The translations under genes were made by a program, and so were the position numbers. The notes beneath the pieces were generated by a model. The model did no database searches and was not told where the DNA came from. It saw only the letters and a list, made by a program, of their open reading frames with translations. A DNA stretch of 64,000 nucleotides, from sequence record NC_048195.1. One strand, 5' to 3'. Positions 15,165 through 62,640 of this stretch are shown here, piece after piece (the first letter of the stretch is position 1; each line of letters begins with the position of its first letter). Origin of the DNA: Escherichia phage vB_EcoM_WFC.

Positions 15165-15632
15165 ATGATTAACGTTTCCGGTTTTGGCGCTTCGATTCGT
15201 TTGGTAGCATCAAACACTTTTCCGAATGGTGTGACTCTTTCTGATTTTGCAGATGATGCTGATCCGATTGACGCGCCGGACCTGCAAATTTCTGAGGCTG
15301 CAATGGGCCTTAACGGTGACTTAGTAGTATGGAACCGTGCAAACCCGCTTGAAGTAGGTGTGAACATCATCCCTACTTCTGAAAGTGATGTCAACTTGGA
15401 CGTTCTTGCAGCTGCAAACCGCGTAGGCAAGCGTAAGAACTCTGCAAAAGACGTGATCACACTTGTGCTGACTTATCCTTCTGGAATGGTTATCACGCTA
15501 AACAAAGGCACCTTGACAACTGGTTCAGTAATTCCTGGCATCCAGTCTCAAGGTCGTGTGAAAACACGTCAATATCGCTTCAAGTTTGAGAACGTAGTCA
15601 AAACTGGCGTGAGCAACCAAGAGATTTTATAA
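15165..15632 (+). CDS. tail tube protein (paralog 1)
   Basis: 155 aa; N-terminus MINVSGFGASIRLVA and overall pattern shared with the ORF at 16583. Confidence 0.6.
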   Translation: MINVSGFGASIRLVASNTFPNGVTLSDFADDADPIDAPDLQISEAAMGLNGDLVVWNRANPLEVGVNIIPTSESDVNLDVLAAANRVGKRKNSAKDVITLVLTYPSGMVITLNKGTLTTGSVIPGIQSQGRVKTRQYRFKFENVVKTGVSNQEIL

Positions 15633-16582: not shown

Positions 16583-17080
16583 ATGGTCAATATTAGTGGA
16601 TTTGGCACAAGCATTAGAATTGTCGCTCTTCAATCTTTTCCTGTTGGGCTGAATATCAGTTCTTTGTCTGATGACCAGGATTCGCTAATTATTGAGGAAG
16701 TTGAATCAGTAGGTTATCAACTTACTTACGACGGCGGCATTTGCATATACGACAAAGCCGCCGTCGTTCGCGTATCCATTGCGGTCATTCCAAACACTGA
16801 AGACGACATAAATCTTAAGCTTTTATTATCTGCCCGTAAAGGTGGATTCAAGTGGTTGCCAATTCAGGATGTGACATCGATGCTCATTACATATCCTGAC
16901 GGTGGAAGGGTGGCATTCTCTAACGGAACGATAATCAGCGGTCCGCTTGGCGACTCCATAGAGCAATCAGGCCGTCGCAAGACAAACCGATACACATTTG
17001 TGTTTGCCAGCTACGGTGGCGCACAGAGCACGTCTCAAATTGCCAAGGGCGTGGTGCAGAGCATATTGGGGTCCATTTAA
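16583..17080 (+). CDS. tail tube protein (paralog 2)
   Basis: 165 aa; MVNISGFGTSIRIVA and the ITYPDGG / GRRKTNRYTF segments align with the 15165 protein. Confidence 0.6.
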   Translation: MVNISGFGTSIRIVALQSFPVGLNISSLSDDQDSLIIEEVESVGYQLTYDGGICIYDKAAVVRVSIAVIPNTEDDINLKLLLSARKGGFKWLPIQDVTSMLITYPDGGRVAFSNGTIISGPLGDSIEQSGRRKTNRYTFVFASYGGAQSTSQIAKGVVQSILGSI

Positions 17081-21654: not shown

Positions 21655-22176
21655 ATGAGAAAGAATAAAGTAATTGAGTTGTTTGGAGTTACTTATGAAA
21701 TACATCAATTCAGCGCAATAGATGCGTTTGAAATGGTTGATGCGATAAGCATATTAACTCCACTTGAATTATTAAGTGAATGTCATGTTATTAAATATGA
21801 CGGAACTAAAGTCAGGCTGAATTCTGAGAAGGCCATCAGTGAAGAAGTGAAAAGTGTGCCAAATCACTTGCCGCCCAACCTTGTATTGAAAGTTCTAATG
21901 GAAGCGGTAAAGAAGCACAATTTTGGATTCCTCAGTGATTGGAAAGGCACTAAGATTCCAAATAGATTCTTGGCTGACGTTCCGACCGTGGAGCCTAATT
22001 ATCTTGAGCCGATGGTTGCAAGCCTAATAAACAATGGTCTTGCTTCGTTAAAAGAATTGGAAGAATATTATTCATTGCGTGATGCATTCGCCATGTTTGA
22101 TGGACTAATAGCAAAATCACTTAATGAAGCCTACTCAAACGAAGCTGCCATTAAAGAATCAAAGTCAAATCGCTAA
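21655..22176 (+). CDS. hypothetical protein (173 aa)
   Basis: Baseplate region of the late array. Confidence 0.45.
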   Translation: MRKNKVIELFGVTYEIHQFSAIDAFEMVDAISILTPLELLSECHVIKYDGTKVRLNSEKAISEEVKSVPNHLPPNLVLKVLMEAVKKHNFGFLSDWKGTKIPNRFLADVPTVEPNYLEPMVASLINNGLASLKELEEYYSLRDAFAMFDGLIAKSLNEAYSNEAAIKESKSNR

Positions 22177-22233
22177 AATATTGCTTATAGACTCCTTATA
22201 GATTATAATTTGTTGATCAGATATAAGGAGTCT

Positions 22234-22962
22234 ATGATGGCAGAAAAGTTAACCCAACTTACAAGCCCCAACCAAACTGACAAATCAAGTATGTTTGCCG
22301 CGCTGCAGGGAATGCTGGACCGTGGCAAGTATACCACTGACGGCATGATTCCTGCACAAGTAATATCTTATGACCGCAAACAGAATTTAGCAGTCATAAA
22401 GCCTGTTATTCATTTCGTAAGTCTTGATGATAGACCAGTGGAGCGTCAACCACTGGTGTCAATTCCTGTATTGGCAATCGGCGGCGGCGGCTTCGTAATC
22501 AACTTTCCTCTGAAAGAGGGTGATTTGGGCTGGATATTCGCTGGCGACCGCGAGTTGTCGACATTCCTTGAAGAATTGAAGCCGACCGCGCCTACCAATG
22601 GCCGCGCGAAAACTTTCGCTGATGGACTGTTCATACCGGATGTATTTAGAAAATACACCATAAGCGGAGAGGATGCAGGCTCAATGGTAATCCAGTCACT
22701 CAGCGGCGCTGTCCGCATTGCATTAAGTGATGACTCGATAAACATAACTGCATCGGCTGGAGTAAATGTGAAAACACCAATAACCACTATCGACCAACAA
22801 TTGATAGTTAATGGAAAGGCAACGTTCAATGGTGGTATAGAAGGGAAAGAAGGAACGACGGCAACGCTTCCGACTGGCACAACAATCGGCGGCACAAATG
22901 TATCCACTCACGGTCACATAGGTAACGGACCTGGAAACAGAACTGGGGATATGATAGAATGA
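22234..22962 (+). CDS. putative baseplate central spike-like protein
   Basis: AAGGAG RBS before ATG 22234; Gly-rich C-terminal end with HGH motif (STHGHIGNGPGN); position before the baseplate J-like gene. Confidence 0.4.
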   Translation: MMAEKLTQLTSPNQTDKSSMFAALQGMLDRGKYTTDGMIPAQVISYDRKQNLAVIKPVIHFVSLDDRPVERQPLVSIPVLAIGGGGFVINFPLKEGDLGWIFAGDRELSTFLEELKPTAPTNGRAKTFADGLFIPDVFRKYTISGEDAGSMVIQSLSGAVRIALSDDSINITASAGVNVKTPITTIDQQLIVNGKATFNGGIEGKEGTTATLPTGTTIGGTNVSTHGHIGNGPGNRTGDMIE

Positions 22963-24230
22963 GTGCACAATATTCTTACATAGTAAGCACTGGTGTAATA
23001 ACCATCGACACAGCCGATTTGCTGGCTGACGTTCAAAGTGAATGGATTGAGTCATTAGGGGTCGGGCTTGACGTTGATGCCTCGACACCGCAAGGCACCC
23101 TAATCGCGACAGAGACTTTGGCAAGAACTTCAGTCATGAAGAACAATGCCGAGCTGGGAAGTCTCATCAACCCTAATTATTCATATGGCGTATACCTTGA
23201 TGCCATCGCGGCGTTGCTTGGTATTGAGCGAACGAAAAACATCAGCACGATGTTGAAAGGAATTACCGCAGAAGGAACGCCGCTGTTGGAAATTCCTGCT
23301 GGAAGTTTGCTGACGGATTCAAACGGTACATACTGGTATGTTCTTGAAGACGTTCAAATCACTTCGACTGGCAAGACAGGCAATATGACTCTTGCATCAA
23401 AAGAGTATGGCTCATTTACTGTTGCGCCTGATGAAGAGTTTACCGTGGTGCAAGGATATGACGTCATCGGATGGTCAAGAACGTATTCAACATCAGCAAC
23501 GACGACCGTACCAGGTACGCAATACATGGGCGACGGAGCGTTAAAGGCCGCTCGCGTTAAGCGCCTTTACCAGCAGGGAATTGCATCGCTTGGTGCTATT
23601 CGCGCTCGCGCCATGTCGGTCGACGGCGTGGAATCGGTGATGGTCGTGGAGAACGACACGGGATTGCCTGGAACGGTGCGCGGCATCACCTTTTCAACGC
23701 CTAACGGTGTCTGGGTGTGCGCAAGCGGAACGTTCGATAAGCAAGTTTTTGCTGAGACTATTTTCAAGGCAAAGATGGGTGGCCAGCCGTGGGACTTTGG
23801 TGCTACCAACCAGGGTGATCCAGTCAACTCGCCTGATGGAATAGAAGTTGTCGACGAAGAATCGCAACTGTCTTATTTCGTAAAGTTCAACACTGCTGTC
23901 ATATATGACTTGTATGTCGACATTACTGTTGTAAGAGGCACCGCAACCGCCGATGCCGAATCTATTATTGCCGCTGTGTTGAATTACGGTAATGGAAATT
24001 TTAACGGCGAGCAAGGATATGCAGTGGGCCAATCTCAATCTTCTTTTGAGATTGCTTCAGCAGTGTCTTGCGAGTATCCAGGTCTGTACATTAAAGATTG
24101 CAAAATTGCAGCAGTAAAAAGCGGACAGGCAGCGCCAAATTATCCATCCGATTACGGCAGCGAGTGGATTGCCAATCCTTGGGATAAGGCTAATACTATG
24201 CGCGGCTTCATCAACGTTAAATTTGTGTGA
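22959..24230 (+). CDS. baseplate J-like protein
   Basis: 423 aa; size and position typical of baseplate wedge proteins; assignment from memory. Confidence 0.5.
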   Translation: MSAQYSYIVSTGVITIDTADLLADVQSEWIESLGVGLDVDASTPQGTLIATETLARTSVMKNNAELGSLINPNYSYGVYLDAIAALLGIERTKNISTMLKGITAEGTPLLEIPAGSLLTDSNGTYWYVLEDVQITSTGKTGNMTLASKEYGSFTVAPDEEFTVVQGYDVIGWSRTYSTSATTTVPGTQYMGDGALKAARVKRLYQQGIASLGAIRARAMSVDGVESVMVVENDTGLPGTVRGITFSTPNGVWVCASGTFDKQVFAETIFKAKMGGQPWDFGATNQGDPVNSPDGIEVVDEESQLSYFVKFNTAVIYDLYVDITVVRGTATADAESIIAAVLNYGNGNFNGEQGYAVGQSQSSFEIASAVSCEYPGLYIKDCKIAAVKSGQAAPNYPSDYGSEWIANPWDKANTMRGFINVKFV

Positions 24231-24236
24231 GGAACT

Positions 24237-24509
24237 ATGCAAAAGTTTGACACAAACCTGTTGCAAAACCTTAAGTGGATGCAGAACAATGCGCCAAACA
24301 TCACATCTTTGGTGCAAAAGAAAAGTGACTGGTATGAAAGATACCAAGATCAGTTTTGGACTGACTGGTACAATAACATTTTTAACATTGACACTTGTGA
24401 TGCAATGGGCATTTATATTTGGTGCGACATTCTTTGCATACCAAGAGACTTTGTGGACTTAAGCAATTATGAGCACAACTGGGCGTTTGGACCGACGCGA
24501 CAACTTTGA
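24237..24509 (+). CDS. hypothetical protein / possible N-terminal fragment of a frame-shifted fibre or wedge gene
   Basis: 90 aa ORF followed by two further ORFs in the other two frames within 400 nt. Confidence 0.35.
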   Translation: MQKFDTNLLQNLKWMQNNAPNITSLVQKKSDWYERYQDQFWTDWYNNIFNIDTCDAMGIYIWCDILCIPRDFVDLSNYEHNWAFGPTRQL

Positions 24510-24616
24510 AGGTGCGGACAACATCGGCGGCAACTTCTTTGGTGCTGGCGGGAAGGTTGTAAAGAATATCGAAGAAGCACGCATACTTCTTAAGCTTCGT
24601 TATCTGACGCTCACAA

Positions 24617-26974
24617 GTGATGGCCGCATCGAAAGTATCAACCGCATGCTTAAGTGGATTTTCAACCGTGGAGAGGCTTGGGATTACTCTTCATCACGCT
24701 ACGCATACGTGGACCGACAACACTCAAGGCGCAGTATCTTCATCTGAATCAACAAATGGATCATTCCTTCTATACGACTGGCAGGGGTCAACTGAGATTC
24801 AGCACGATTATAAGCAGATACTTTTAAGCCATGGCAACAACGCCGGACTGACTATCAGCGGAGTGTCAGGCACCGTGTCACGGATGGCGCATCCAGATTG
24901 GTACTCATGGGGGAATGGTTCCGGCACAGGTCTTGTCGGCGGCGACACAAGACAGTATGGCGGCCCTGATTACTATGGGCAGTTGTGTGGCGATTACCCA
25001 GGTGAGGCAATAGAGAATTTTGCCAACGCAGTAAGGGTCGTCAAGACGGCTTCAAGCGGTGAGCCTGTGTATTCTTTGGCCAATAATCCAAGCGCACAGT
25101 CAATTGCCCTTCCTTCGCAGGCTGGCGTTAACGTTTGCTATAGCTTCTACATAAAGGTGCTTTCTGAAAACGTCGCTTCTGTTTCTGTTACAGAGAATAG
25201 TGATGCATCGAGTAATGGAAAGCTGTTTGACCCCGTCACTGGCCAGTTCAACTTGGACCCGTCATTGAGCTATTTCATCAAAGGTAAATTCGATGGAGTA
25301 AGAAGGGAATCAAACCGTGGTGGCATAAAAGCAATTGGCGGCGATTGGTATCGAATCTGGATTGTAGAGCAGACGGCAACCGCTGCTTCTGGAGTAAGTA
25401 CCAGCTTTTCAATAGAGTTGAAGGCGACTGCCGCTGGATCAACTCAAACTCGTGAATTGCCTGAAGGGTCTGATGCTCTTTTGTTTGGATACTCGATTTG
25501 CGTCTGCGACCCTGTTCAGAATCCAAATGGACCTGAGCCTTATTTTTATGGAACGCAAAACCCTCCTTCTGACGGAACAGCAATCCTGTCTGTAACGGCG
25601 GGAACGCTCAATAACATCTCCTGTGCAAACGGACCGCTGACGACAAGAAACGGTGTAGTTGGCGAGTCATTCATGCAACCTGGCTCATCACTTGCATACT
25701 CTGGCTCAATCGGTGGCTACCCGTACCCAGGGAACGCCACGCTGATTGCAGAGACTGATGGAATCAGACGCTCATGGAACGTTAGCAGGCTGGATGGAGT
25801 ACCGCCGCCGCCGACCGCCGACTATTACATGGAATACGTCATCGGACCTTATTTCGCCAACAACCTGTCTGACAACTTTAAGACGCTAGTTGGCGACAGG
25901 AATGAAGGATTCTTGCCAGCAAATGCCGGAATACGCTGGCAGCTTTACCAAGAAGTCGCAGACTTATCTGATATCGATTTGACTGTCAACGACATAACAG
26001 ACACGCGCGTAGGATTTGAAACGGAAGGTGTTGCGTGGATTAACACTGACGGTATCATTAGAGTTGGCGGCATCAACGAGTGGCCGCTGAACAACTTCAA
26101 CGGTGTGATACGCCAGCTTGAATCTTTGAAAGGTGTAAACCAGGTCGTCGACGGCGCACTTGTCAACGACTATTCAATCTCAAAAGCATCAAGAGATGAC
26201 TTTGGTCGTGAAATACCACGCGCGGCAATCACTAACTATTGGCGCTACACACAGCCAAACGACGGTACATCTTTTGGCAATATCATTGAGGATGGCGCAA
26301 ACACTGTCACAGCTACGCCAATCAGCGGTGTGCCCAACCAGTTCCCATCATTCAAGCTTTCCGCTACAATAGGGACTGTGCCAGCGTCCGGTTATGCACG
26401 CGCTGTACTTGCTACTAAATACACTGGCACCCTGACTGGCCCTTTGTCATTTATCGCAATAGTCAAAAACAACACGGTTAACGGTCAAAAACTTTTTGTA
26501 ACTGTACCGGATGGGATGGGTGGCTATATCCCTAAATTCTACAACATAGGCGCAGGTGATTTGCAACGTATCGAAATTGACCTTGCCGCTGAGATTGTTG
26601 AAGGCGCTACCTGGGATGGATCAACAGGCGGCATCAGCATCGGTTTGATATCAGGGAAAGACTTGCCGACCGAAGTTGGTACGACTCTTGAACTTGATAT
26701 TTTAAGCTTGATGCTTGTGTCTGGTAGTACGATGAATGCGCTTGCAATTTCAACAAGCGAAGATTTCGCAAAGAAAACTGCGACTTCTATATACATCAAA
26801 AACCCAGGATCACTTGCCACTGGAGTTCAACTGATTGCTTCTAATGGTGATGTTGTAGCAACAGTAAACTTTCCGAGAAGTGCTGCTGGTGGTTATGTTT
26901 CAAGCATGAACATAACTGACTTAACTGGTGATTGGGCAACAACCCTTTTGTCAAAAATTAAATACATCGTGTAG
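24617..26974 (+). CDS. tail fibre protein
   Basis: 785 aa, Gly/Ser/Thr-rich, downstream of baseplate genes. Start is uncertain because an upstream reading frame continues into this gene. Confidence 0.55.
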   Translation: MMAASKVSTACLSGFSTVERLGITLHHATHTWTDNTQGAVSSSESTNGSFLLYDWQGSTEIQHDYKQILLSHGNNAGLTISGVSGTVSRMAHPDWYSWGNGSGTGLVGGDTRQYGGPDYYGQLCGDYPGEAIENFANAVRVVKTASSGEPVYSLANNPSAQSIALPSQAGVNVCYSFYIKVLSENVASVSVTENSDASSNGKLFDPVTGQFNLDPSLSYFIKGKFDGVRRESNRGGIKAIGGDWYRIWIVEQTATAASGVSTSFSIELKATAAGSTQTRELPEGSDALLFGYSICVCDPVQNPNGPEPYFYGTQNPPSDGTAILSVTAGTLNNISCANGPLTTRNGVVGESFMQPGSSLAYSGSIGGYPYPGNATLIAETDGIRRSWNVSRLDGVPPPPTADYYMEYVIGPYFANNLSDNFKTLVGDRNEGFLPANAGIRWQLYQEVADLSDIDLTVNDITDTRVGFETEGVAWINTDGIIRVGGINEWPLNNFNGVIRQLESLKGVNQVVDGALVNDYSISKASRDDFGREIPRAAITNYWRYTQPNDGTSFGNIIEDGANTVTATPISGVPNQFPSFKLSATIGTVPASGYARAVLATKYTGTLTGPLSFIAIVKNNTVNGQKLFVTVPDGMGGYIPKFYNIGAGDLQRIEIDLAAEIVEGATWDGSTGGISIGLISGKDLPTEVGTTLELDILSLMLVSGSTMNALAISTSEDFAKKTATSIYIKNPGSLATGVQLIASNGDVVATVNFPRSAAGGYVSSMNITDLTGDWATTLLSKIKYIV

Positions 26975-26984
26975 AGGAACGGCA

Positions 26985-28769
26985 ATGCCAACACTTATTA
27001 ACAGACCTTTCGCGCAAAGCGGTGATGTATCCGTGGTGCCGGATGCAAGTCCAAGCGGTTATGTGAACTTCCAGCGCGGCTACACCCCTGACTATGCACT
27101 TGCGCTGGAAGCCGGAAACGTCGCCGCGAAAGCAGTTGAACGTGAGTCGATGAACTGGTTGCTGAATCTGATCACCGACAACCTTATGTTCATCCAGGAC
27201 CACGGCGCTCAACAGTATTTCTCGTCTGACTTGAAGCCAGATGGATACCCGAAAAATGCCATCGTTGTCAGCAACTCCGGCACCCCTTCAGCGCCTGAAT
27301 GGCGCATTTTCCAGAGTGTGGTAGACGGCAACACCAGCGCAGTCCCAGCTAACGGCGAAACGGAATCTTGGCAGGAATTGACGCTGCCTAGCGAAGCGCG
27401 AAAATATATTCCTATGCCTGCTGGCGGCGATGCGCAAAACCCGTATTTTGTTCGCGGACTGATTTCAAACTTTGTGGACTTTGATAATATCACGACTTCC
27501 ACAACTATTGTTATTCAATCTGACGCAGTCGCCGCTCTCTGCTCTAACATCCCGAACGCGGTTGGTGCGACGAAGGTTGCAGGTCGTCTCCAGGTTTGCG
27601 CTTGGCAGGTTAATGCGCAGACTTTCGCCCTGCAACAATACACGTCAATGAACGGATATGTTTTCACCCGCTCTTATACTTCTGGTGCCTGGAGTGCCTG
27701 GATTCAAAATGCTACTGTTCAAGACGTGCAAATTGGAACGCCGAATCTTGCATCAGGTAAAGGCGCACAAGATATAATCCTTACCGTTCCAGCAGGTTAT
27801 TCATGGCCTCCGTCAGCAGGTAGTCGCCTGACCATCATTAATGATGTCACGACCACCGGACCTGTCACCGTGACCATTGGTGCAAACAAAGTTGCAGTCC
27901 TTGGATTCGACGGCGGCGAGCTGCCAGCAGGGTCCATCGTCGGGCTTCTTCCTTTTACTATTATTTATGACGGCACCGTTTGGCGTCTTCTTCAAGCATT
28001 CGGCGCGGCGCAAATCGGTGTCGATGCTAGTGAGCCGCAACAGTTTGTTACAAAGCGCCAACTCGATGCTTTGGCCGCGAAGTTGATCACTATGGGTGAT
28101 GTGTTCGAAGTCGGTGAGACTCGATTCTTGACTAATGGCACCAACCCAAATACTAAACTGGGCGCTTACGGTCAGGTATGGACCAGGTTGCCTGATAACA
28201 TGGTCATCAGGACGTCTGGCACGGCAAGAAACGGTCTTGACACTGGAGGTGCAGACTCTGTTACTCTTACCGCCGCCATGCTTCCTCTCCACAATCACAG
28301 CGTGGACATCACTACGCGACAAAGTGGTCCATGGTCCAATACCACTGGAGACGCAGGCAACCATAACCACACAGGCGATACTAGTCAGAACGGTGCTCAC
28401 GTGCACGGAATGGATGCCGCTGGTAATCATTATCACGACAGTGGCTGGGGTGAGGCTTATGCAGACCAGGCTAGATACGGGGTATATGATGGCACGCACA
28501 ATAACCTTGGAAGTGCAAGATCTGATTATGACAACTATAAATACAACACCTCAACTAACGGCAACCACGTTCACAATATTCAATCTTCTGGGTCACACAC
28601 TCATGGGTTGAATATAAATTACGCTGGCAATCACAGCCATGGATATACCCTCCCCGCTCACACTCACGATGTGGTCGGTAACACTGGCGATGCAGGGCAG
28701 TCCGTCCCAACGGCTGTTTCAACTCTGCCGCGATATGTCGTCTTGAACGGCTGGTACAGAAGCGCATAA
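26985..28769 (+). CDS. tail fibre protein with C-terminal HxH metal-binding repeats (receptor-binding tip)
   Basis: GAGGAAC RBS before ATG 26985; eight His-x-His motifs in the last ~130 aa (HNH, HNH, HVH, HYH, HVH, HTH, HSH, HTH). Confidence 0.65.
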   Translation: MPTLINRPFAQSGDVSVVPDASPSGYVNFQRGYTPDYALALEAGNVAAKAVERESMNWLLNLITDNLMFIQDHGAQQYFSSDLKPDGYPKNAIVVSNSGTPSAPEWRIFQSVVDGNTSAVPANGETESWQELTLPSEARKYIPMPAGGDAQNPYFVRGLISNFVDFDNITTSTTIVIQSDAVAALCSNIPNAVGATKVAGRLQVCAWQVNAQTFALQQYTSMNGYVFTRSYTSGAWSAWIQNATVQDVQIGTPNLASGKGAQDIILTVPAGYSWPPSAGSRLTIINDVTTTGPVTVTIGANKVAVLGFDGGELPAGSIVGLLPFTIIYDGTVWRLLQAFGAAQIGVDASEPQQFVTKRQLDALAAKLITMGDVFEVGETRFLTNGTNPNTKLGAYGQVWTRLPDNMVIRTSGTARNGLDTGGADSVTLTAAMLPLHNHSVDITTRQSGPWSNTTGDAGNHNHTGDTSQNGAHVHGMDAAGNHYHDSGWGEAYADQARYGVYDGTHNNLGSARSDYDNYKYNTSTNGNHVHNIQSSGSHTHGLNINYAGNHSHGYTLPAHTHDVVGNTGDAGQSVPTAVSTLPRYVVLNGWYRSA

Positions 28770-30393: not shown

Positions 30394-31356
30394 TTAAAAA
30401 TACTCCATATCGGTAATATCACGGAAGCATTTATACAAAGCAGAGCGCGGCACGTCGACGATGCCAAAGTTAAAGAATTTATACGTTAGGTATTTATCGC
30501 GATAGTTCTCGCGATTCTCCCAAAGCATTTTACGCTCTGCCATAGGCATTGAACCAGCGGAGACGCGGAAAGGAATCATTTCACCTTTCTCATCCACATA
30601 TTTTGGATTGACGACTACGAATGAGCCAAGGTATCCTTTCGCAACTAAACCTTCAGCCTCTTTTGAACGCTTGGTGCGACCCAATTCGTCAATGAATGCT
30701 TCGTTGTTATTCTCCATCATCTCAACGAAGTCTATGATCAACCCTTCTTCATCGGTCCACGGCTTGTCCTTCCACACATCACGTGACTTCGGCGTCGCGC
30801 GCCCATGCTTATATTTGCCCGTCCAAGACTTGCCATACAAGCCTTCATATCCAAGCTGGTCTGCTTCGATTTGCATCGCCGCGTACTGTTCCATATTTTC
30901 GATGTTTCGATATTCGAGAGCGCGAAGGAATGGGCGTCGACCATGGTTGATGAGATGTTGATTAACTTCAGCAACTCTAGCTCGATAGTTTGCATAACGC
31001 TTTTCAAAAGGCAGATCAGGGTCGCTGAAGTCATCAAACACCCACCATGTAAAGTTAGTGATTGCATCAGTATTCATGCATGCAGTATAGGCCTGTTGCA
31101 TGACGTTCTTATCATTTGGATTGCCGTCGATTAGCTCTCCATCAAGTCCGTGAATTAGTTCACCCAAAAAGAGGAACTCTTTTTTGATTTGAACGTTGCG
31201 CAACGGCATGCCGGAAGTGCCCATTGGCAAGTTGTCATACGCCATTGCACGTATGCCATCGACCTTGAATGACAGTCCGCAAGGCAGCGGCACGTCCTCG
31301 CCGCGCTCGATAATCTGCTTACGTTGGCAACCCTTCATTGGTTTTAATGCTGTCAT
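30394..31356 (-). CDS. ATP-dependent DNA ligase
   Basis: 320 aa; nucleotidyltransferase motif I FKVDGIRAM (KxDG) and motif IV-like EGLVAKG. Confidence 0.8.
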   Translation of the reverse strand: MTALKPMKGCQRKQIIERGEDVPLPCGLSFKVDGIRAMAYDNLPMGTSGMPLRNVQIKKEFLFLGELIHGLDGELIDGNPNDKNVMQQAYTACMNTDAITNFTWWVFDDFSDPDLPFEKRYANYRARVAEVNQHLINHGRRPFLRALEYRNIENMEQYAAMQIEADQLGYEGLYGKSWTGKYKHGRATPKSRDVWKDKPWTDEEGLIIDFVEMMENNNEAFIDELGRTKRSKEAEGLVAKGYLGSFVVVNPKYVDEKGEMIPFRVSAGSMPMAERKMLWENRENYRDKYLTYKFFNFGIVDVPRSALYKCFRDITDMEYF

Positions 31357-31358
31357 AA

Positions 31359-31982
31359 TTATTGTCCTGTAACTTCTCTGATCACACGGTCTTCAAGTTC
31401 CAGCTTCTTTACCATTTTGCAGGAGTGCTCATAAGCGGGATCAGTAGATTTGATGAACGTTCCGTTGTACATGACACCTTTGCGGTCCTTGATGTCTTCG
31501 TAGGCCGCTTGCGCACAGTCGGATAAGCGAAGGCCATAATCATGAGCTACGCCGGAAAGGTAATCGACTGCGGCCATGATGGTGACGTCAATATCCATGG
31601 TCTGATTCTTAGCAATAGCATCACCAAGCCGTCCAAGGGTCTTTGCCAGGCGAAGGATGAATGAATGAGGGTGAGCGCCTTTATCAGCGCAACCGCCGCC
31701 ATTAATGTTTTCGATTTCAGTACCGTTTTGCGCCGCCAGGATGGTCAACACAACAAGACAATCGCCAATGTCGTCCTTGATTGCAGCTTGCAAGTCACAG
31801 ATGGCCTGCTCTGTATATCCAATTTCAGGGTCGAAGAACACAAGGTCATGGAGTTGATCAACGTGGTCGGTTAACTCCCCAAACTCGCTGATAAGCTTCG
31901 GGTATTGGTCCTTAAGGTCGCAACCTTGGATGATGTTACGGTCAGAAGCCCACTGGCGAATGTTTGCATAAATCTGTTTCAT
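31359..31982 (-). CDS. MazG-like nucleotide pyrophosphohydrolase (putative)
   Basis: 207 aa; all-alpha pattern with EFGELTDH and DIGDCLVVL acidic motifs resembling MazG/HisE-type NTP pyrophosphatases. Confidence 0.5.
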   Translation of the reverse strand: MKQIYANIRQWASDRNIIQGCDLKDQYPKLISEFGELTDHVDQLHDLVFFDPEIGYTEQAICDLQAAIKDDIGDCLVVLTILAAQNGTEIENINGGGCADKGAHPHSFILRLAKTLGRLGDAIAKNQTMDIDVTIMAAVDYLSGVAHDYGLRLSDCAQAAYEDIKDRKGVMYNGTFIKSTDPAYEHSCKMVKKLELEDRVIREVTGQ

Positions 31983-55006: not shown

Positions 55007-55221
55007 ATGCCGCGCTGGGTAAGTTGTCTTTCAATAAACGCAACGAGCTGCGCATGGTGTCGCGCTTTCAACAAACGTATTCATCACTAATAAAGATTAC
55101 AAATAAGGCCGACTCTAGAGCTTGCCCTAAAGAAGAATGGGAAGCATTGAACGAGCGTCGTAAACAATTACAACATGCTGCATTCAAGCTGCAGCAATAT
55201 GCTATGGAGTATGCAAAATGA
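55003..55221 (+). CDS. hypothetical protein (72 aa)
   Basis: ATG 55003 preceded by GAGGTG. Confidence 0.4.
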   Translation: MNAALGKLSFNKRNELRMVSRFQQTYSSLIKITNKADSRACPKEEWEALNERRKQLQHAAFKLQQYAMEYAK

Positions 55222-55502
55222 AGATGCAAAGATGTCCCCATTGCTTGTCCACGATGCGGCTTACTGCTGAAGAATATTTACATCACGTTAACGTTTGTGA
55301 GGCTAATCCTGAAAACTCGACGCGTTACTATTATCATTATCACGCAGAAGCGGAAGATGGATCAGGCGCAACAGGCATCGTCACCACTAAAGAAATGGTG
55401 ATAACTAAAAAGGCATATGAAAGCTTGCTGGAGACGATTAAAGAAGTTTCTGGCAAAGAAATCACCTGTATTAAATCTTTATCTTTCTTGCACGAGGTAT
55501 AA
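55218..55502 (+). CDS. small Cys/His zinc-finger-like protein (paralog a)
   Basis: 94 aa; N-terminus MKMQRCPHCLSTMRLTAEEYLHHVNVCEANPENS. Confidence 0.45.
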   Translation: MKMQRCPHCLSTMRLTAEEYLHHVNVCEANPENSTRYYYHYHAEAEDGSGATGIVTTKEMVITKKAYESLLETIKEVSGKEITCIKSLSFLHEV

Positions 55503-55503
55503 A

Positions 55504-55887
55504 ATGAGAATGAAGCGTTGCCCTTACTGCCACGATGTGGTGCACCTTCCACACGAAGAGTTTGTGCACCACATGACTAACTGTGATAAGAATCCTAATA
55601 GCGAAAGCCAACTTGAAGAAAGAATGTTCTTGGTGTCATTCAAAGCTTCTGCTTATGAAGTGCAACGTTCTTACGGCGCACCAAGTACGATTTACTGTCC
55701 AACAACATTGAGAAGCGACATCGACTCAATTCAGCTTGCGGCCTGGATTAACGTTAAGGAAGGAATCACGCCGCACTTTATTGCGCGCATCCAATCTCAG
55801 ATTCTACAAATCAAGCGCGAATACAACCGTGACATCACTGAAGTGAAGGTGTTGTCTATCACACCGATGAATAAGGAGTTGCCGTGA
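55504..55887 (+). CDS. small Cys/His zinc-finger-like protein (paralog b)
   Basis: 127 aa from ATG 55504; N-terminus MRMKRCPYCHDVVHLPHEEFVHHMTNCDKNPNSES matches the adjacent paralog. Confidence 0.45.
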   Translation: MRMKRCPYCHDVVHLPHEEFVHHMTNCDKNPNSESQLEERMFLVSFKASAYEVQRSYGAPSTIYCPTTLRSDIDSIQLAAWINVKEGITPHFIARIQSQILQIKREYNRDITEVKVLSITPMNKELP

Positions 55888-56144
55888 ACAAGGGTCCGAT
55901 GACTAAGTTAGCCGTTGCCGCGCGGAAGCTTCGACAAGCCGTTAATGGGTCGCGGCCCGTGGTGTTAACACTCGACGATGCAAAGGCACTGGTAGAGCTA
56001 CTCGACGAGCACAACCGACGCAAGAATCTGGAGAACACATTACGCTGGCGCGTTACTCCGAAAGGGCGGGAGAGCGAGAAGAAAGCTTACTTGCGACGCA
56101 AACTAAGGTCAGTCGGCCTCCACGAAGAGGCGAAGAATATTTAA
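55884..56144 (+). CDS. hypothetical protein (86 aa)
   Basis: GTG start preceded by AAGGAG. Confidence 0.4.
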   Translation: MNKGPMTKLAVAARKLRQAVNGSRPVVLTLDDAKALVELLDEHNRRKNLENTLRWRVTPKGRESEKKAYLRRKLRSVGLHEEAKNI

Positions 56145-56150
56145 TTCAAA

Positions 56151-56194
56151 AAGGTGAGCTAAATGCTTGCCTTTTTATTTGCCTGTATTATACT
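56151..56194 (+). promoter_or_regulatory. hairpin-plus-promoter cassette (copy 2)
   Basis: Same hairpin as copy 1 (56151-56173); TTGCCT (56167-56172), 16-nt spacer, TATACT (56189-56194). Confidence 0.45.
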
Positions 56195-56215
56195 TAGTTC
56201 ATCAAGCAAAGGAGA

Positions 56216-56524
56216 ATGATTATGAGTTACGACGAAAGGTTTGGCAGAAGCGGATTATTTCATGACGCTGTACACAAAGACAGCAAAGATGTTGTCTGCG
56301 CATTCAAGGTTGATTCTTACGGTACACTGAAACCTTTTAAGGTCGGCGAAACATACAAGCTGTTTCACGGCTGGTTGACGCGTCGCAACAACTTGCCTGA
56401 CATGGAAGTCTGGTGGATAGAATACAAGGGTCAGGCTCATCGTTGCAAGGTTGTAGAGGTGCGCGGCGTGGAATACTATCAATCTGTTATCAGCGGCTTT
56501 GTTTTTAAAGAGGGTGAGCTATGA
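56216..56524 (+). CDS. hypothetical protein (102 aa)
   Basis: AAGGAG RBS; early array. Confidence 0.45.
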   Translation: MIMSYDERFGRSGLFHDAVHKDSKDVVCAFKVDSYGTLKPFKVGETYKLFHGWLTRRNNLPDMEVWWIEYKGQAHRCKVVEVRGVEYYQSVISGFVFKEGEL

Positions 56525-56826
56525 GTACAGAAGCGATGAAGAAAAAGATTTTGAACGCTTTGCAAGAAGCCGTGAACTGTGGTGCAATTAAAACCTTTAC
56601 TGAAAGGCAAGTCGGTGAGGTGACGGTGCACGGATTCAATAATAACAAAAACGGAATTGCTGCCATAATGCTGTTGAAGAACAGCGATGACACATTCATC
56701 ATTTACGTCGGCGGATATGAGCTTATCGTTGATGATTTGTTCATCACTTGCGCTGACGGCCTTAACCCAATGTTAACGTTCGAGCGGCGCGGCATCCGTG
56801 TTGCAACGTTTGGAGGGAAGTTATGA
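56521..56826 (+). CDS. hypothetical protein (101 aa)
   Basis: AGGGTGAG RBS; N-terminal AVNCGAI segment shared with the 57004 protein. Confidence 0.45.
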   Translation: MSTEAMKKKILNALQEAVNCGAIKTFTERQVGEVTVHGFNNNKNGIAAIMLLKNSDDTFIIYVGGYELIVDDLFITCADGLNPMLTFERRGIRVATFGGKL

Positions 56827-56987
56827 CATCAAATCTTAAAGCCCGTTTATTATTCATCAAGCCGCATGTGCCGTATAAGATTAGTAAGCGCACCTGGCTT
56901 AACATTTACAACCGCAGCGGCGACCGTTGTTTGTACAAGGCAAAGCGGCGCAAGAAGGTATATTCTTACACAACATCAATCAAATAA
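56823..56987 (+). CDS. small basic protein (54 aa)
   Basis: ATGA coupling with the upstream stop; Lys/Arg-rich. Confidence 0.35.
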   Translation: MTSNLKARLLFIKPHVPYKISKRTWLNIYNRSGDRCLYKAKRRKKVYSYTTSIK

Positions 56988-57003
56988 ATAGGATAAGACA
57001 ACA

Positions 57004-57507
57004 ATGAAAATCGAACAACTCGAAGCAGTACTGGAAATGGCTGTAAAGGCTGGCGCAATCAGAAGCTATAGCCGCGAGAAGTCGGAAAACGATATGGTGT
57101 TTTGTCGCAACTTCTATATCGTCGGCAACCTTAACGACCACTACACCATCGAGTGGTATATTAACATGATGACGCTTAAGTCGCGCACCATGGAGCTTTG
57201 GTGCGATGACATTTGCTTATCCAACACCCATCCATCCTACGACGTTGCATTGGCATTCTATTACGGAAGCCGTCAACCTGTCGCCCACATCGGTGAGAAG
57301 CATGAGCATCTTAAGGCGCGACCAGAGGAATCAATGGAAGGCTGGATTGAATGGGCTGGAGGAAAGAATCCGGTGCCTGGTAAGAAGGTCATGTTGATGT
57401 GGAGGAATGAAGAAAAGTCGTCGTATTCGTCCAATTCAGAGGGATGGCTATGGCATCACAACGGAAGCGTTTATGACATCATAAAGTATCGCGTCGTGGA
57501 GGAATGA
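57004..57507 (+). CDS. hypothetical protein (167 aa) with C-terminal WxGGxNPVPGK module
   Basis: C-terminal EGWIEWAGGKNPVPGKKV ... YRVVEE shared with the 58791 protein. Confidence 0.45.
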   Translation: MKIEQLEAVLEMAVKAGAIRSYSREKSENDMVFCRNFYIVGNLNDHYTIEWYINMMTLKSRTMELWCDDICLSNTHPSYDVALAFYYGSRQPVAHIGEKHEHLKARPEESMEGWIEWAGGKNPVPGKKVMLMWRNEEKSSYSSNSEGWLWHHNGSVYDIIKYRVVEE

Positions 57508-57848
57508 TGGAAGAACAAGAAGGCCGTGAGCTGACATTCGATGAACAGATGGCCGAACTTCAGCGCACATCGCCGCTGCGCGGTAAGGTTGTTGACATTG
57601 AGGCGAGCGAATCCAATCTCACCAAGTGGCGGCTCAAGTGCACCAGCACAAGCAAGGATATGTTAAGCTTCAAAGTCGGTCAGACTTATTTGCTTTATGA
57701 GGCAAAAGGACTTATTATTGATGGAAGGCAAATTGTCTTCACGGTTGTCAACGGCATGCGTTGGTTCGTGAAGCGTGATGTCGAGGGACGTGACATGTTT
57801 GTCGCAGGCTTTCCAGAAGCAAGATTCCAATTGGAGAAGGTTAAATGA
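57504..57848 (+). CDS. hypothetical protein (114 aa)
   Basis: Start overlaps the upstream stop. Confidence 0.45.
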   Translation: MMEEQEGRELTFDEQMAELQRTSPLRGKVVDIEASESNLTKWRLKCTSTSKDMLSFKVGQTYLLYEAKGLIIDGRQIVFTVVNGMRWFVKRDVEGRDMFVAGFPEARFQLEKVK

Positions 57849-58171
57849 AATTGAAATGGTACGTGGACCCTGAGCCGACAGGCTCATACAGGTCATTCCA
57901 ACGTCGCGGCTGGCCGATTTGTTACAGCGGCAATCCCGATAAAGAAGACTGCGAGATGATCGCCGCGATAGTAAGTCTTAACCATGACGGCTATGAAGGC
58001 CACTACGCGAGAGCAACCAACCTTCGGCTCAAGGTGCGCATCCATTTCAAGGTCGCAGGCAAGGACCGCACCGGACTCTCCAAGGAAGAGTTCAGCAGCA
58101 TTGCCGAAGCAAAGGCATGGCTCAAGGCATTCTACAAGGCCAATCCTAAATTTTATCCAGTCAAGGAATAA
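57845..58171 (+). CDS. hypothetical protein (108 aa)
   Basis: Start overlaps the upstream stop. Confidence 0.45.
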   Translation: MKLKWYVDPEPTGSYRSFQRRGWPICYSGNPDKEDCEMIAAIVSLNHDGYEGHYARATNLRLKVRIHFKVAGKDRTGLSKEEFSSIAEAKAWLKAFYKANPKFYPVKE

Positions 58172-58174
58172 GTG

Positions 58175-58579
58175 ATGAATCAACATAAAGAACGTTTAGA
58201 AGAACTGGTGCGCGGCGAGCTTTACGGCGGCGATGACTCACTGTTCAAGTTAAGCGATGCGGTTGTCAACGAGTACGTGCACGGACTGGTCGACCCGCAA
58301 GGCCGTTTCCCTTATCCGCGAGATTACTGCAACGACATCACAGCAGCTTGGCCCGTGATGCTTGCCAATGATGTCAGCGTCGTGCGAAACTGCGGCAACA
58401 AAGAACCAAACCGTGACTACTCGGCTTACGTCGCGTTGGACGCCATGGACATTGCATCATTTAAATGCAGCGGCAGCCACGACAACCCGTTACGCGCCGC
58501 TATGCATGTAATCATTAAGTTGCACGTGAGCAAGGGCGAAGGTGCAGTGGCAACCGTTTATGAGAAGGTGAAATTATGA
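58175..58579 (+). CDS. hypothetical protein (134 aa)
   Basis: First ATG taken (ORF track starts at GTG 58172). Confidence 0.45.
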   Translation: MNQHKERLEELVRGELYGGDDSLFKLSDAVVNEYVHGLVDPQGRFPYPRDYCNDITAAWPVMLANDVSVVRNCGNKEPNRDYSAYVALDAMDIASFKCSGSHDNPLRAAMHVIIKLHVSKGEGAVATVYEKVKL

Positions 58580-58794
58580 CCGATAAACAATACGCAGTCG
58601 GGCAACGTGACATCGAGCAACTCGACGAGGGCGGCTATTATACTCGCCACATCTATGCAATGACGCATGAAGGACTCTACAGCAAGTCGGACATTGCCGC
58701 TGAACTGGCCCATCGTGACTTGCAAATTGACCTTCTCAAGATAGAAGTGCAAAACTTACGCAACACCCTGTTAAATACCTGGAGCTTAAAATGA
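58576..58794 (+). CDS. hypothetical protein (72 aa)
   Basis: GAAGGTG RBS. Confidence 0.45.
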   Translation: MTDKQYAVGQRDIEQLDEGGYYTRHIYAMTHEGLYSKSDIAAELAHRDLQIDLLKIEVQNLRNTLLNTWSLK

Positions 58795-59192
58795 TCAATC
58801 GATTTAACTGCATCGTCAACAAGGGGATGGCGGTCAATGAGGATGGTCCTTGGATTCACTATGAGGACTATGAATCACTGCTCAAGCTTAATGAGTCGCT
58901 AACAAAAGAGATTGAGCAATACCGCGAGCGCATCAAAGCCGCTGAAGATGTTATCAAGCTTTTTAGCGAGGCTGTTGAGAAATACAAGGAGCGCAACGTA
59001 CCGATTAAGGAGGAAGCGTGGACCGTGTGGTTTGGTGGTGAGAATCCGGTGCCTGGGAAGATGGTTGAGTTTGAATTACTCAACGGTTATAAATCAAAAG
59101 GTGCTGTTCCTTCGGATAGTTTGACATGGGATAAAGTCACAAGCCCGACTGGTGCAAAGATTGTTGCTTATCGGGTCGTTAAGGAGGGGTGA
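58791..59192 (+). CDS. hypothetical protein (133 aa) with C-terminal WxGGxNPVPGK module
   Basis: GGAG RBS; C-terminal WTVWFGGENPVPGKMV ... YRVVKEG. Confidence 0.45.
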   Translation: MINRFNCIVNKGMAVNEDGPWIHYEDYESLLKLNESLTKEIEQYRERIKAAEDVIKLFSEAVEKYKERNVPIKEEAWTVWFGGENPVPGKMVEFELLNGYKSKGAVPSDSLTWDKVTSPTGAKIVAYRVVKEG

Positions 59193-59725
59193 TGGGTAAC
59201 GATGCAGGATGGGGCAAGCCGCGATACTCAAAACTTGCCCACTACTTTGACAACGGCGAGCAAATCAGCTTGTGCGGTAAATTCAACAAAGGCAATACAG
59301 AGTTGACCGATGCTCAAGAAATGGAATCAAGTTTTACAATTGGTGATTGCTCTAAGTGCAGAAAGGCATTATATGAGTTATTAACTCTAAGGGGATTGAA
59401 AGCGGCAAAATCAAGGGATGAATGGGTCATCAACGTCTGTGAAGGGAATCCAGAATTAATGGATGAATTGCTGAAAACAGATGCCGTTAATGCCATTTTT
59501 AAAAGGCATTATAAAACTTGTATGCGTTACAAGATGAATGATAATATTATTTTTATGGTATTATCTTATTCAAGGAGCACAATGGACGTCAAAAAGCTTC
59601 GACAATATCGTCACAAGGTAATGTGTGAATTGCGCCGTTTAGGAGTGACTGTTGATAATAATGTCATTAAAACGGAGTTAAAGAAGCGTGATAAAAGGAA
59701 TGGTGACTGGAAGGTCAGCAGATAA
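59192..59725 (+). CDS. hypothetical protein (177 aa)
   Basis: AAGGAGG RBS; last gene of the early array. Confidence 0.45.
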   Translation: MGNDAGWGKPRYSKLAHYFDNGEQISLCGKFNKGNTELTDAQEMESSFTIGDCSKCRKALYELLTLRGLKAAKSRDEWVINVCEGNPELMDELLKTDAVNAIFKRHYKTCMRYKMNDNIIFMVLSYSRSTMDVKKLRQYRHKVMCELRRLGVTVDNNVIKTELKKRDKRNGDWKVSR

Positions 59726-60017
59726 AGAACGTTGATTTGTGTGTTTTGAAGAATGGAATGTGTGCAATGGGTCGCTTTATGCGGCCTTTTGTTGTTTGGG
59801 TCGTGTTTTGCGATGGAATAATTATGAGGTTGTGTTTTATTTATTAATTGTGCGGAAATATTTAGAAATATATATAAACAGGATTGTTAATATTTTAATA
59901 GTGTATGGCTATTGGTCCGTGGTGTTCGTTAGATTCTATCTATGGATTGGATTTTCTTGGGTCGTGAAACGTGGTTTTGAACACATTTGATACGCCTAAA
60001 ATACGGTTAAAAATTAA

Positions 60018-60347
60018 GCGTATCATGGCTGCAGGCCGCGCCGTTCCTGGATTCCTATTTTCAAAAGTGGTACACCCTTACGTCATGATACGTCATGGTT
60101 TTCTATCCGTAAGAGTGTACAGCCCTTGCCGCGCCTGGCTTGTACATTAATCTTACGGATGATACGGATAAAACTGAGCATCGTTATATATAGAATTCGA
60201 AAAATTAATTAACTCCATTTTAAAAACATTTATATTAATTTTTTTCATATCCTCATACTTATGTTAATTTATATATTTAACGTATTATCCGTAAGATATA
60301 AGTAAAAACAAAGACTTGCGGCAATACGGATGATACGTCATGATACG
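60018..60347. repeat. iteron-like TACGGATGATACG repeats flanking an AT-rich core (region B)
   Basis: CGTCATGATACGTCATG (about 60080-60097), CTTACGGATGATACGGATA (60152-60170), ATCCGTAAG copies near 60104 and 60287, AATACGGATGATACGTCATGATACG (60323-60347); AT-rich core 60180-60280. Confidence 0.6.
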
Positions 60348-60512
60348 CTTCGACCAGCCAGCAGCGGCTAAGTCATTGATTTGCATAACAAGCGGCAAAA
60401 GGGATGGATTTCTTTTATACGTATCAAACAGTACACCACGCACCACGGTCCGCAATCCACGCAGCATTATGATTTGTGTACTTTTATAGCCATAATGAAC
60501 ATCAATCTGCAC

Positions 60513-60541
60513 TTGAATATAATGTCCATCCATTGTATAAT
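60513..60541 (+). promoter_or_regulatory. sigma70-like promoter upstream of the TerS-like gene
   Basis: TTGAAT (60513-60518), 17-nt spacer, TATAAT (60536-60541). Confidence 0.45.
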
Positions 60542-60561
60542 TCACACTATTAATTTGCACT

Positions 60562-61050
60562 ATGGGATTTTGCACTATGAGTCAAGATTATGTAGCGATG
60601 CCTGAAGACTTTGAAGACCCGCGATTCGCAGAGCACAATCAGGCTTTATTCGATGAGTTCATTGACCTTGTTATTCAGGGCCATGACATGCGCGCAGCTT
60701 TTGCACTAGTATTTGGAATGGAAGTTGCAACGGATAACTACACTGGCCAGCGAATCCTTTGCACGCAACGCAATCCATACTACAAGATGCGCTTCAAAAA
60801 GCGTATGGAAGAGATGCCACTCAAGGATTTGTGGAGCGTAAAAGGTGCAATTCACAATTTGGTCAAGCTTGTGCGTGATCCAGAAGTCGCGGCGTCAGCC
60901 AAGCTTAATGCTATTCGTGAACTGAATATCATCTACGGCATCACGATGATTGATGAAAACGGCAATAGTAAAATGGGCCGTTCCATGGACGATTTCTACA
61001 AGGATTTCGGAGAGGCGGCCAAAGAAGGCGAGCAATTTTCCCGCCACTAG
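60562..61050 (+). CDS. putative terminase small subunit (HTH-type)
   Basis: 162 aa; GHDMRAAFALVFGME ... QRILCTQRNPYYKMRFKKRMEE and later KLNAIRELNIIYGI resemble small-terminase patterns from memory; alternative ATG at 60577. Confidence 0.45.
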   Translation: MGFCTMSQDYVAMPEDFEDPRFAEHNQALFDEFIDLVIQGHDMRAAFALVFGMEVATDNYTGQRILCTQRNPYYKMRFKKRMEEMPLKDLWSVKGAIHNLVKLVRDPEVAASAKLNAIRELNIIYGITMIDENGNSKMGRSMDDFYKDFGEAAKEGEQFSRH

Positions 61051-61052
61051 CC

Positions 61053-61448
61053 AATTTGCACTATAAAACGGCCCTAGAACACATTTTCTCCACTTCTAGG
61101 GCCATCGGTAATACGACGGGGAAGGTTGCAACCATAAACGCGTTAGAAAGTGTATTATTATAAGTCATCTTTTAGTCACTTTACGTAACAATTTACGACC
61201 TTCAACCGTCCAATCGAACGACTCCACCAGCAGATTCGCACTATAACCTAAGACGATGCGCCCTTTCTCGTTATCGACCCGCCAACAAGTCTCGAATAGC
61301 ATTCGATTTGCACTATTAACTATTGCCGCAACTCGCGTAGGATAAGCGCAATTTGCACTATGGTCGTAAAGGGATAAGGTGCGACCACTTCCGATGGACA
61401 ACGTAGCGATGAGAATAAGCGTATTCATAAGCCACCAATTTGCACTAT
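61053..61448 (+). repeat. array of same-orientation (A)ATTTGCACTAT motifs
   Basis: Copies at 61053-61064, 61233-61244 (TTCGCACTAT variant), 61305-61316, 61350-61361, 61437-61448; further copies at 60552-60563, 60569-60578, 61734-61745, 61748-61759, 62021-62032. Confidence 0.6.
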
Positions 61449-61478
61449 GAAAAGCGACCCCGAAGGGCCGCCATTCGA

Positions 61479-62105
61479 TTAGATAATCTGGAAGGTATAG
61501 GACTTGTTGCCGAACTCGAAGTTCAAGCGTCCAGCTTCTTTAAGCTTCATGCGGAAGCGAATGTGCTTGCTATCCGGTAAGCCCAGCGCGGCGAACGCTA
61601 CGCGGACCGATTTGAACTCGCCTACACCCTCGACCATAACGCCGTTACGGGTAAGACGCTTTTGCGCCACTTCCTTATTATCCCAACTTTTTGCAATGCC
61701 TTCGCTATTCGAACGGCGATGGGAAGGAGTTCCATTTTGCACTACGCAATTTGCACTATCGTTTAAACCGCTCTTAACGAAGGCTTCATACTCTTCGTCG
61801 GTCATCGCGTCGAGTTCTTCCTGCGTCGGCTCGGCCTTTTTAACGACCGCACGCGCCTTATGCGTTTTTACATCGCTGGACACTTCCTCGCGAGACTTCG
61901 CGTCGGGGATGGGCGATTCGTTGGACGGCTCATCGAGCGCGTTTAAGGACTCGATTAACGCTATTACGCGAGTCTCGGCGGTCCGGCGGTCCGCAAATTT
62001 TTTAATCGGCTTCGAACCGGAATTTGCATTATAAAATGCAACGAGGTCGGCGGTCTTAGTTGCGATAACGTCGCCGCTAGTCGAGAAACGATTTAAGCTA
62101 ACCAT
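61479..62105 (-). CDS. hypothetical protein (208 aa)
   Basis: Minus-strand ORF in the CpG-rich block; second gene of an operon driven from about 62570. Confidence 0.45.
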   Translation of the reverse strand: MVSLNRFSTSGDVIATKTADLVAFYNANSGSKPIKKFADRRTAETRVIALIESLNALDEPSNESPIPDAKSREEVSSDVKTHKARAVVKKAEPTQEELDAMTDEEYEAFVKSGLNDSANCVVQNGTPSHRRSNSEGIAKSWDNKEVAQKRLTRNGVMVEGVGEFKSVRVAFAALGLPDSKHIRFRMKLKEAGRLNFEFGNKSYTFQII

Positions 62106-62185
62106 AATGAACTCCTATTTGTTAGGGCGCTAGGCGCGAAAGAATTTTATTAAAGCGCCGCGCACGACGCTCTAAAAATCCTCTC

Positions 62186-62500
62186 TTACTCTTCGTCATC
62201 TTCGATTAATTCGAGGGCGAAGGCGTAAGCTTTGCTATCGTAATTAACTAAAACGGCGAGTTCGAACTCGTTAATAAACGCCGTTTTACCGCATAAATTT
62301 AATTCCGCATCGACTTCGAAGAATCCGTTTTCGTCGCGCTCTAAGCGAGAAGCAGCGAGTTGCTCGATTACCGTCGCGTCGTTAATTTCTTCGCCTAAGC
62401 GAACGCCGGAGAATTTCGCGAGAATTTCGCCGTAAGTAAGCGTAACGCCCTGGACTTCGGCGGTTGCGTTTTCGAGGGTAAAGCGGGTAACGATAGCCAT
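62186..62500 (-). CDS. hypothetical acidic protein (104 aa)
   Basis: AGGAG RBS upstream on the minus strand; CpG-rich codon usage. Confidence 0.45.
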   Translation of the reverse strand: MAIVTRFTLENATAEVQGVTLTYGEILAKFSGVRLGEEINDATVIEQLAASRLERDENGFFEVDAELNLCGKTAFINEFELAVLVNYDSKAYAFALELIEDDEE

Positions 62501-62568
62501 AATAAACTCCTAGTTGGGAGAGGCGTTAACGACCTATTCGTTAACTCATCCCGTCCCGATATGAGTAC

Positions 62569-62596
62569 ATTATAATATAGTGTAGAAAAAAGTAAA
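62569..62596 (-). promoter_or_regulatory. sigma70-like promoter (family copy 1, minus strand)
   Basis: On the minus strand: AAAAAGTGC TTTACT, 16-nt spacer containing TACACT, TATAAT. Confidence 0.5.
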
Positions 62597-62640
62597 GCAC
62601 TTTTTCGATAAAAATGCGATAAATTATTTTATCTTTTTTC

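Follow-up and report, generated by a model that had tools for sequence, protein, structure and literature searches.

In the genome of Escherichia phage vB_EcoM_WFC (NC_048195.1), of which a stretch of 64,000 nucleotides was analyzed (the window), the gene for a wedge or "triplex" subunit of the baseplate is divided among three open reading frames (ORFs) by two small insertions or deletions (indels). These probably arose as two local errors, of consensus calling or of assembly, in the deposited record MK373777, in which case the real phage would make a normal one-piece protein of 912 residues. The original prediction had described three ORFs in three different frames at the start of a tail-fiber gene and had offered programmed frameshifting, an indel pair introduced by sequencing or assembly, or a decaying N-terminal domain as possible explanations. 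The three ORFs are present exactly as described, and the indel pair is the explanation favored by the evidence, because both indels are unique to this record and the gene is otherwise intact.

The whole gene occupies positions 24237–26974 on the plus strand and, with its two indels, is 2,738 nucleotides long, versus 2,739 (912 amino acids) in relatives (orthologs Bas100_0030, FEC19 gp53, and Mansfield_050). ORF1 (24237–24509, plus strand, frame 0, 90 amino acids) encodes native residues 1–88 followed by Q-L and a TGA stop at 24507–24509, giving the C-terminus ...WAFGPTRQL. ORF2 (24469–24747, plus strand, frame +1, 92 amino acids), annotated as WFC_00049, contains NFEGADNIGGNFFGAGGKVV and ends in a TGA at 24745–24747; native coding within it is confined to 24498–24711 (residues 88/89–159), the first 10 codons being out-of-frame and the last 12 running from an inserted G to the stop. 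ORF3 (24617–26974, plus strand, frame +2, 785 amino acids as listed) opens with 32 out-of-frame codons, its native part (residues 160–912) starting at 24713.

Alignment of these translations to homologs gives a collinear, three-piece match to a single intact ortholog. In a tblastn search of the window with the Bas100 protein, the pieces fall one per frame and correspond to residues 1–88, 88–159 (100% identity), and 160–912 (99.2%), with a range of 98.9–100% across them. The Pfam family DUF2612 (PF11041; gathering score 23.5 bits) is similarly split, ORF1 alone scoring 37.9 bits over profile positions 3–63 (E 2.2e-9) and ORF2 alone 22.1 bits, just below the gathering score, over positions 102–135. 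After repair of the two indels, the same family is matched in one stretch, over residues 10–146, with 60 bits and E 3.8e-16. As read in the window, the N-terminal domain is therefore spread over three frames, whereas it lies on one polypeptide in every relative inspected. At the level of sequence the three ORFs are parts of one continuous protein, beyond chance, and the earlier suggestion that the pieces would join into one N-terminal domain is borne out by the alignment, by the two-indel repair, and by the tblastn search.

Both breaks could be placed to within a few bases. Junction 1 (24496–24499, plus strand) reads CGCG, versus CGCGCG in relatives; one CG is lost, its placement within the repeat being arbitrary, and the reading passes from frame 0 to frame +1 between R88 and D89. 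Junction 2 (24711–24712, plus strand) reads GG, versus G in relatives (GTGACC becoming GTGGACC); one extra G moves the frame from +1 to +2 between V159 and T160. As originally noted, there is no homopolymer at either junction, the changes being (CG)3 to (CG)2 and G to GG. In a four-way alignment with Bas100, FEC19, and Mansfield these are exactly the two length differences, −CG and +G. The junctions lie 216 nucleotides apart and the net change is −1, so they do not compensate for one another. When both are undone by adding CG and removing one G, a 2,739-nucleotide ORF of 912 amino acids with no internal stop results, the first 200 residues of which are identical to those of two database proteins (P0001 and P0010); over all 912 positions, 3 differences separate the repaired protein from P0010. 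The tryptic peptide of the continuous protein that spans junction 2 is YAYVTDNTQGAVSSSESTNGSFLLYDWQGSTEIQHDYK.

The two sites also resemble each other. A 9-mer, TGGACCGAC, occurs at both (24488–24496 and 24710–24718), followed in each case by CGACAAC...AAGG.GC (an 18-mer, 78% similar). Relatives share only GACCGAC at both sites, the inserted G having lengthened the identity from 7 to 9 nucleotides. GGACCGAC is present in four copies in the 64-kb window, compared with 0.86 expected, and no indel relative to Bas100 is listed at the remaining two copies (4115 and 38284). The shared 9-mer may be a coincidence, as both sites encode T-(R)-D-N, or it could stem from a consensus error specific to this context or from templating between the quasi-repeats.

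Comparison with relatives indicates that the interruption is peculiar to this record. The region 23800–25400 matched 27 phage records at 87–99.5% identity, all of them FEC19/ECML-117/WFH-type myophages of Escherichia coli or Shigella (genus Wifcevirus), and in 27 of 27 the match spans both junctions and is 1–2 bases longer than the query, consistent with an intact gene. For four relatives the comparison was made at single-base level or from the annotation, and a single 2,739-nucleotide coding sequence (CDS) is annotated in the three examined in detail (Bas100, FEC19, and Mansfield). The original prediction would have been overturned by homologs with three separate small genes here; the relatives inspected have a single CDS instead. 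At the protein level, full-length homologs form just two clusters at 90% identity; in one of these, with 205 members, all of the 15 listed (40 read) are 912 amino acids long except two that are partial. The N-terminal domain was found by tblastn in 376 phage records, with a single-piece match in all 60 of those listed, which span the full ranking. When codons are counted in the continuous frame, variable sites among relatives fall at third positions in each of the three segments (22 of 25, 22 of 25, and 16 of 17).

The rest of the genome contains nothing comparable. When the 111 CDSs of Bas100 were compared with the window by tblastn, a frame change was seen in this gene only. Other indels relative to Bas100 (54 kb) are compensated within a few bases in a divergent patch, are a multiple of three, or lie in an intergenic homopolymer; an insertion at 31986 falls within the last two codons of the spanin gene.

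An independent sequence of the region is a Logan contig, L016 (SRR22877456), derived from a different phage (98.0% identity to the window over 13.3 kb) and encoding an identical J protein and an intact 912-residue wedge protein. Between window positions 21818–24578 and contig positions 4860–7622 (2.76 kb) there are zero substitutions, and the CG deletion is the one difference. Since no substitution separates the two over this distance, the deletion is younger than any substitution there, as expected of an artifact. The identical block comprises the end of the gene for a 173-residue protein, the spike and J-like genes, and the first part of the wedge gene, with flanks that differ by 2–3%, and it gives the impression of a recent mosaic formed by recombination among Wifcevirus phages.

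Searches for the altered alleles elsewhere were negative. An exact 30-mer and a codon-degenerate 24-mer of the deletion allele had no match in IMG/VR, and the degenerate deletion pattern had five matches in JGI metagenomes and one in GTDB genomes, all of them unrelated by blastn. The degenerate junction-2 pattern had one match in IMG/VR, also unrelated. The intact junction-1 pattern recovered three Wifcevirus contigs, as expected. Exact ORF1, three start variants of ORF3, an out-of-frame ORF at 24169–24462, and the repaired 912-residue protein are absent from a collection of 15 billion proteins, so that no second sequencing of WFC came to light there, and ORF2 as a protein is confined to this one record (a cluster of one).

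Although the gene had been called a tail-fiber gene, this label is imprecise: it encodes a homolog of the baseplate wedge/triplex subunit gp45 of Pseudomonas phage E217, and the fiber is encoded by the next gene. Residues 4–185 of the Bas100 ortholog, which is 99% identical to the window in this gene, match Triplex gp45 of E217 (8env_K; also chain K of 8eon) with E 4.3e-41 and gp46, baseplate wedge 2, of phage Pa193 (9b45_v) with E 1.2e-41. These matches to PDB sequences settle the identity of the N-terminal domain, so by homology the gene is assigned to the DUF2612/Phage_Wedge1 baseplate wedge (triplex) subunits, with an N-terminal domain of approximately residues 1–185. Both breaks lie inside the aligned domain. 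Junction 1 falls within the region aligning with the fiber-attachment loop of gp45 (residues 76–123), and junction 2 aligns to approximately residue 168 of gp45, still in the conserved block. The C-terminal ~720 residues belong to no Pfam family, match PHROG 4797 (unknown function), locally PHROG 11600, and no other PHROG, and show an insignificant local match to the gp45 C-terminus.

Genomic context agrees with this assignment. The local gene order is hub, 173-residue protein, spike, J-like wedge, wedge/triplex gene, fiber, and endolysin, so that the gene lies between the J-like and fiber genes as a gp45-type gene does. The upstream neighbor, WFC_00047 (22959–24230, plus strand), encodes a J-like wedge subunit according to Pfam (Baseplate_J) and the annotation of relatives, and by position and family is the putative counterpart of E217 gp44. 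The downstream neighbor, WFC_00051 (26985–28769, plus strand), encodes the conserved tail fiber of 594 amino acids according to annotations and the literature (PMC11990801). The products of both neighbors and of ORF2 have exact matches among vB_EcoM_WFC proteins, encoded on a 72,472-bp contig. Wifcevirus phages are recognized as distant relatives of Pbunavirus, which includes E217, and the Pbunavirus virion structure has been used for their annotation (PMC11990801). In E217, for which there is a cryo-EM structure, the baseplate "nut" consists of six triplexes, each with two gp44 conformers and one gp45, and the fiber gp46, the product of the next gene, is held by its N-terminal coiled coil in loop 76–123 of gp45 (PMC10329688). 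By analogy, and as far as homology allows function to be predicted, one copy of the wedge subunit per wedge would bind two J-like subunits via its N-terminal domain, six baseplate wedges would be built in this way, and the loop of the subunit would anchor the downstream fiber. The ortholog in phage vB_Eco4M-7 was detected in virions by mass spectrometry as a 98.6-kDa "putative structural protein" (vB_Eco4M-7_62), encoded between the J protein and the fiber (PMC7048862).

Three features of the fiber gene itself were also observed. Its ORF as delimited by program starts at a GTG (26928) that overlaps the wedge gene, whereas the annotated start is the ATG at 26985. The protein is 595 amino acids long in most relatives, and the window is one codon shorter through a −1/−2 indel pair 9 nucleotides apart (especially 28515–28524). 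Its C-terminal part is HxH-rich, as described for the conserved Wifcevirus fiber.

ORF2, an annotated CDS, begins before junction 1 and ends after junction 2, and therefore both frame changes are present in the deposited record. The record, rather than the phage, is probably at fault. The equivalent proteins T4 gp7, P2 gpI, and Mu gp48 are essential; the wedge gene is presumably essential as well, and a plaque-forming phage would hence be unable to carry both changes. Two null frameshifts in the N-terminal domain would not be expected in such a phage, and a record error is therefore rated the most likely explanation. The genomes of the study that included vB_EcoM_WFC were obtained with PacBio RSII and HGAP3 or with MiSeq and SPAdes, as stated for the study as a whole (Korf et al. 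2019; PMC6563267), and that of vB_EcoM_WFC was reported with 319.8x coverage and 113 CDSs (PMC6563267).

Several observations weigh against an error in the record. Two uncompensated indels lie 216 nucleotides apart with none elsewhere in 64 kb, which is unlike randomly placed errors; if there were just two errors, the chance of such clustering would be ~0.7%. Loss of two nucleotides from a dinucleotide repeat is not the commonest error type of either PacBio or Illumina sequencing. At the stated coverage of ~320x consensus errors should be rare, and the clustering together with the shared TGGACCGAC points to a local, context-dependent cause.

The explanation that survives best beside a record error, though we consider it unlikely, is that both indels are real and recent in the sequenced WFC stock, the wedge gene being truly broken and its loss either tolerated or carried by a defective genome that was frequent in a mixture. 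Loss of a repeat unit and duplication of a base are what slippage classically produces, the sequence around them is otherwise without fault, and clustering in one gene fits a scenario in which a first hit inactivates the gene and a second is neutral better than it fits random error. This clustering is at once the best argument for real mutations and the chief weak point of the error explanation. Frameshifts are known, moreover, in fiber-related genes of laboratory phages, stf of lambda PaPa being an example. However, the domain hit by both breaks is the one that makes up the wedge core in E217, and given that the T4, P2, and Mu equivalents are essential, a null allele should not form plaques. 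A three-piece protein is an unlikely remedy, as neither the ATG of ORF2 (24469) nor the GTG/ATG of ORF3 (24617/24620) is preceded by a Shine-Dalgarno sequence, and no copy of the allele turned up in IMG/VR, JGI metagenomes, or GTDB genomes. Nor is there a sign of relaxed selection in the broken gene, which has acquired no extra substitutions relative to L016 (2.76 kb) and no further stops. WFC had been isolated as a lytic phage and propagated as such (PMC6563267).

It is far less probable that the indels are real and that +1 ribosomal frameshifting, at CUU-UGA (24504–24509) and again before the TGA at 24745–24747, yields a near-normal protein at a low level. In its favor, each of the two shifts would have to be +1, the frame-0 reading terminates in CUU UGA A, the same arrangement of P-site codon and stop as at the +1 site of E. 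coli prfB, and by analogy with E217 only six copies would be needed per virion. Yet the frame changes occur in none of the relatives inspected, so no evolved signal is at work here, and within 20 nucleotides upstream of the CUU there is no Shine-Dalgarno-like (GGAGG-like) stimulator. At the second site, none of the 12 codons before the stop (GUG GAC CGA CAA CAC UCA AGG CGC AGU AUC UUC AUC) re-pairs in the +1 frame. Homopolymers that would allow transcriptional slippage are lacking, RNA folding at both sites is no better than that of shuffled sequence (z +0.16 to +1.02), and two inefficient events in series would give a yield far below 1% of normal. A −1 frameshift of the lambda G/GT type fares no better, both shifts being +1 and neither junction containing an X XXY YYZ heptamer, and a scan for promoters and terminators found nothing beyond shuffled expectation. 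Programmed frameshifting, as proposed originally, is thus unsupported by relatives, by a slippery codon at site 2, or by RNA structure. In the gp45 fold of E217, both breaks do map to loops or linkers or close to them, but we see only a very slim chance that real indels coexist with a functional wedge protein, whether made by two +1 shifts or assembled from three fragments; if so, an essential six-copy baseplate protein would still work when extremely under-expressed or fragmented.

Three small genes that are truly distinct, or an N-terminal domain in evolutionary decay, are scarcely credible and are refuted by the comparisons with relatives: although ORF2 is annotated as its own CDS in GenBank and RefSeq (WFC_00049/QBQ77441.1/YP_009823602.1), none of the homologs inspected is split and the ORF2 protein is found in this one record only, the third-position bias follows the continuous frame, and the "decaying" middle segment (native residues 88–159) is 100% conserved with no extra substitutions, within 2.76 kb around junction 1 that are identical to L016 save for the deletion.

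The gene itself encodes an ordinary, well-conserved baseplate subunit and holds no biological novelty. The practical consequence is a probable correction of sequence and annotation in vB_EcoM_WFC, the exemplar of the genus Wifcevirus. GenBank and RefSeq appear to hold three spurious CDSs for one 912-residue wedge protein; the identity of ORF2 with WFC_00049 is confirmed, and tag numbering suggests that the other two are WFC_00048 and WFC_00050. Such fragments propagate as "hypothetical proteins" (e.g., UniRef100_A0A482MTQ3) and can skew the pangenome and core genes computed for these phages. If, on the other hand, the indels are real, they would present the unusual case of a phage that stays viable with an essential baseplate protein in fragments.

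Elsewhere in the window, positions 15165–15629 and 16583–17077 hold paralogous genes (155 and 165 amino acids in Bas100) with 33% identity over 141 residues; both are labeled "tail fiber protein" in Bas100, and the second, in the Logan gene calls, matches the Pfam family E217_Gp32. A highly divergent patch at 31352–31430, where the DNA ligase gene meets the MazG-like gene (minus strand), has 21 extra bases relative to Bas100, a multiple of three that keeps the frame. The early/accessory region at 55200–64000 is mosaic relative to Bas100, with identity down to 83–95% and several small Bas100 genes that are without a counterpart or only partly matched.

Three known systems put the interrupted gene into perspective. 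The +1 site of E. coli prfB, which encodes RF2, consists of CUU UGA C and an upstream Shine-Dalgarno-like element. ORF1 likewise ends in CUU UGA, and a slip of +1 at this point would bring ribosomes back to the native frame with no change other than D-N-F to Q-L. Unlike prfB, it has no stimulator, its stop is followed by A rather than C, and a second shift, itself without a signal, would also be needed; moreover, the in-frame CUU UGA was created by the 2-nucleotide deletion and is not an in-frame site in relatives. The stf gene of laboratory lambda PaPa, which Hendrix and Duda are said to have described as frameshifted in 1992, is a likeness in that an appendage-related virion gene appears as adjacent ORFs in different frames through a small indel relative to wild relatives. 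The lambda mutation, however, is real and the gene dispensable, whereas here two indels that are probably artifacts fall in the wedge-core domain of a presumably essential gene. A third comparison is with E217 gp45 and Pa193 gp46. The wedge subunit of vB_EcoM_WFC differs from E217 gp45 (500–504 amino acids) in being ~400 residues longer, at 912 amino acids, and in the interruption of its gene by two indels in the vB_EcoM_WFC record alone, but it shares with both proteins a homologous N-terminal domain and the order of J-like gene, wedge gene, and fiber (gp44-gp45-gp46 in E217).

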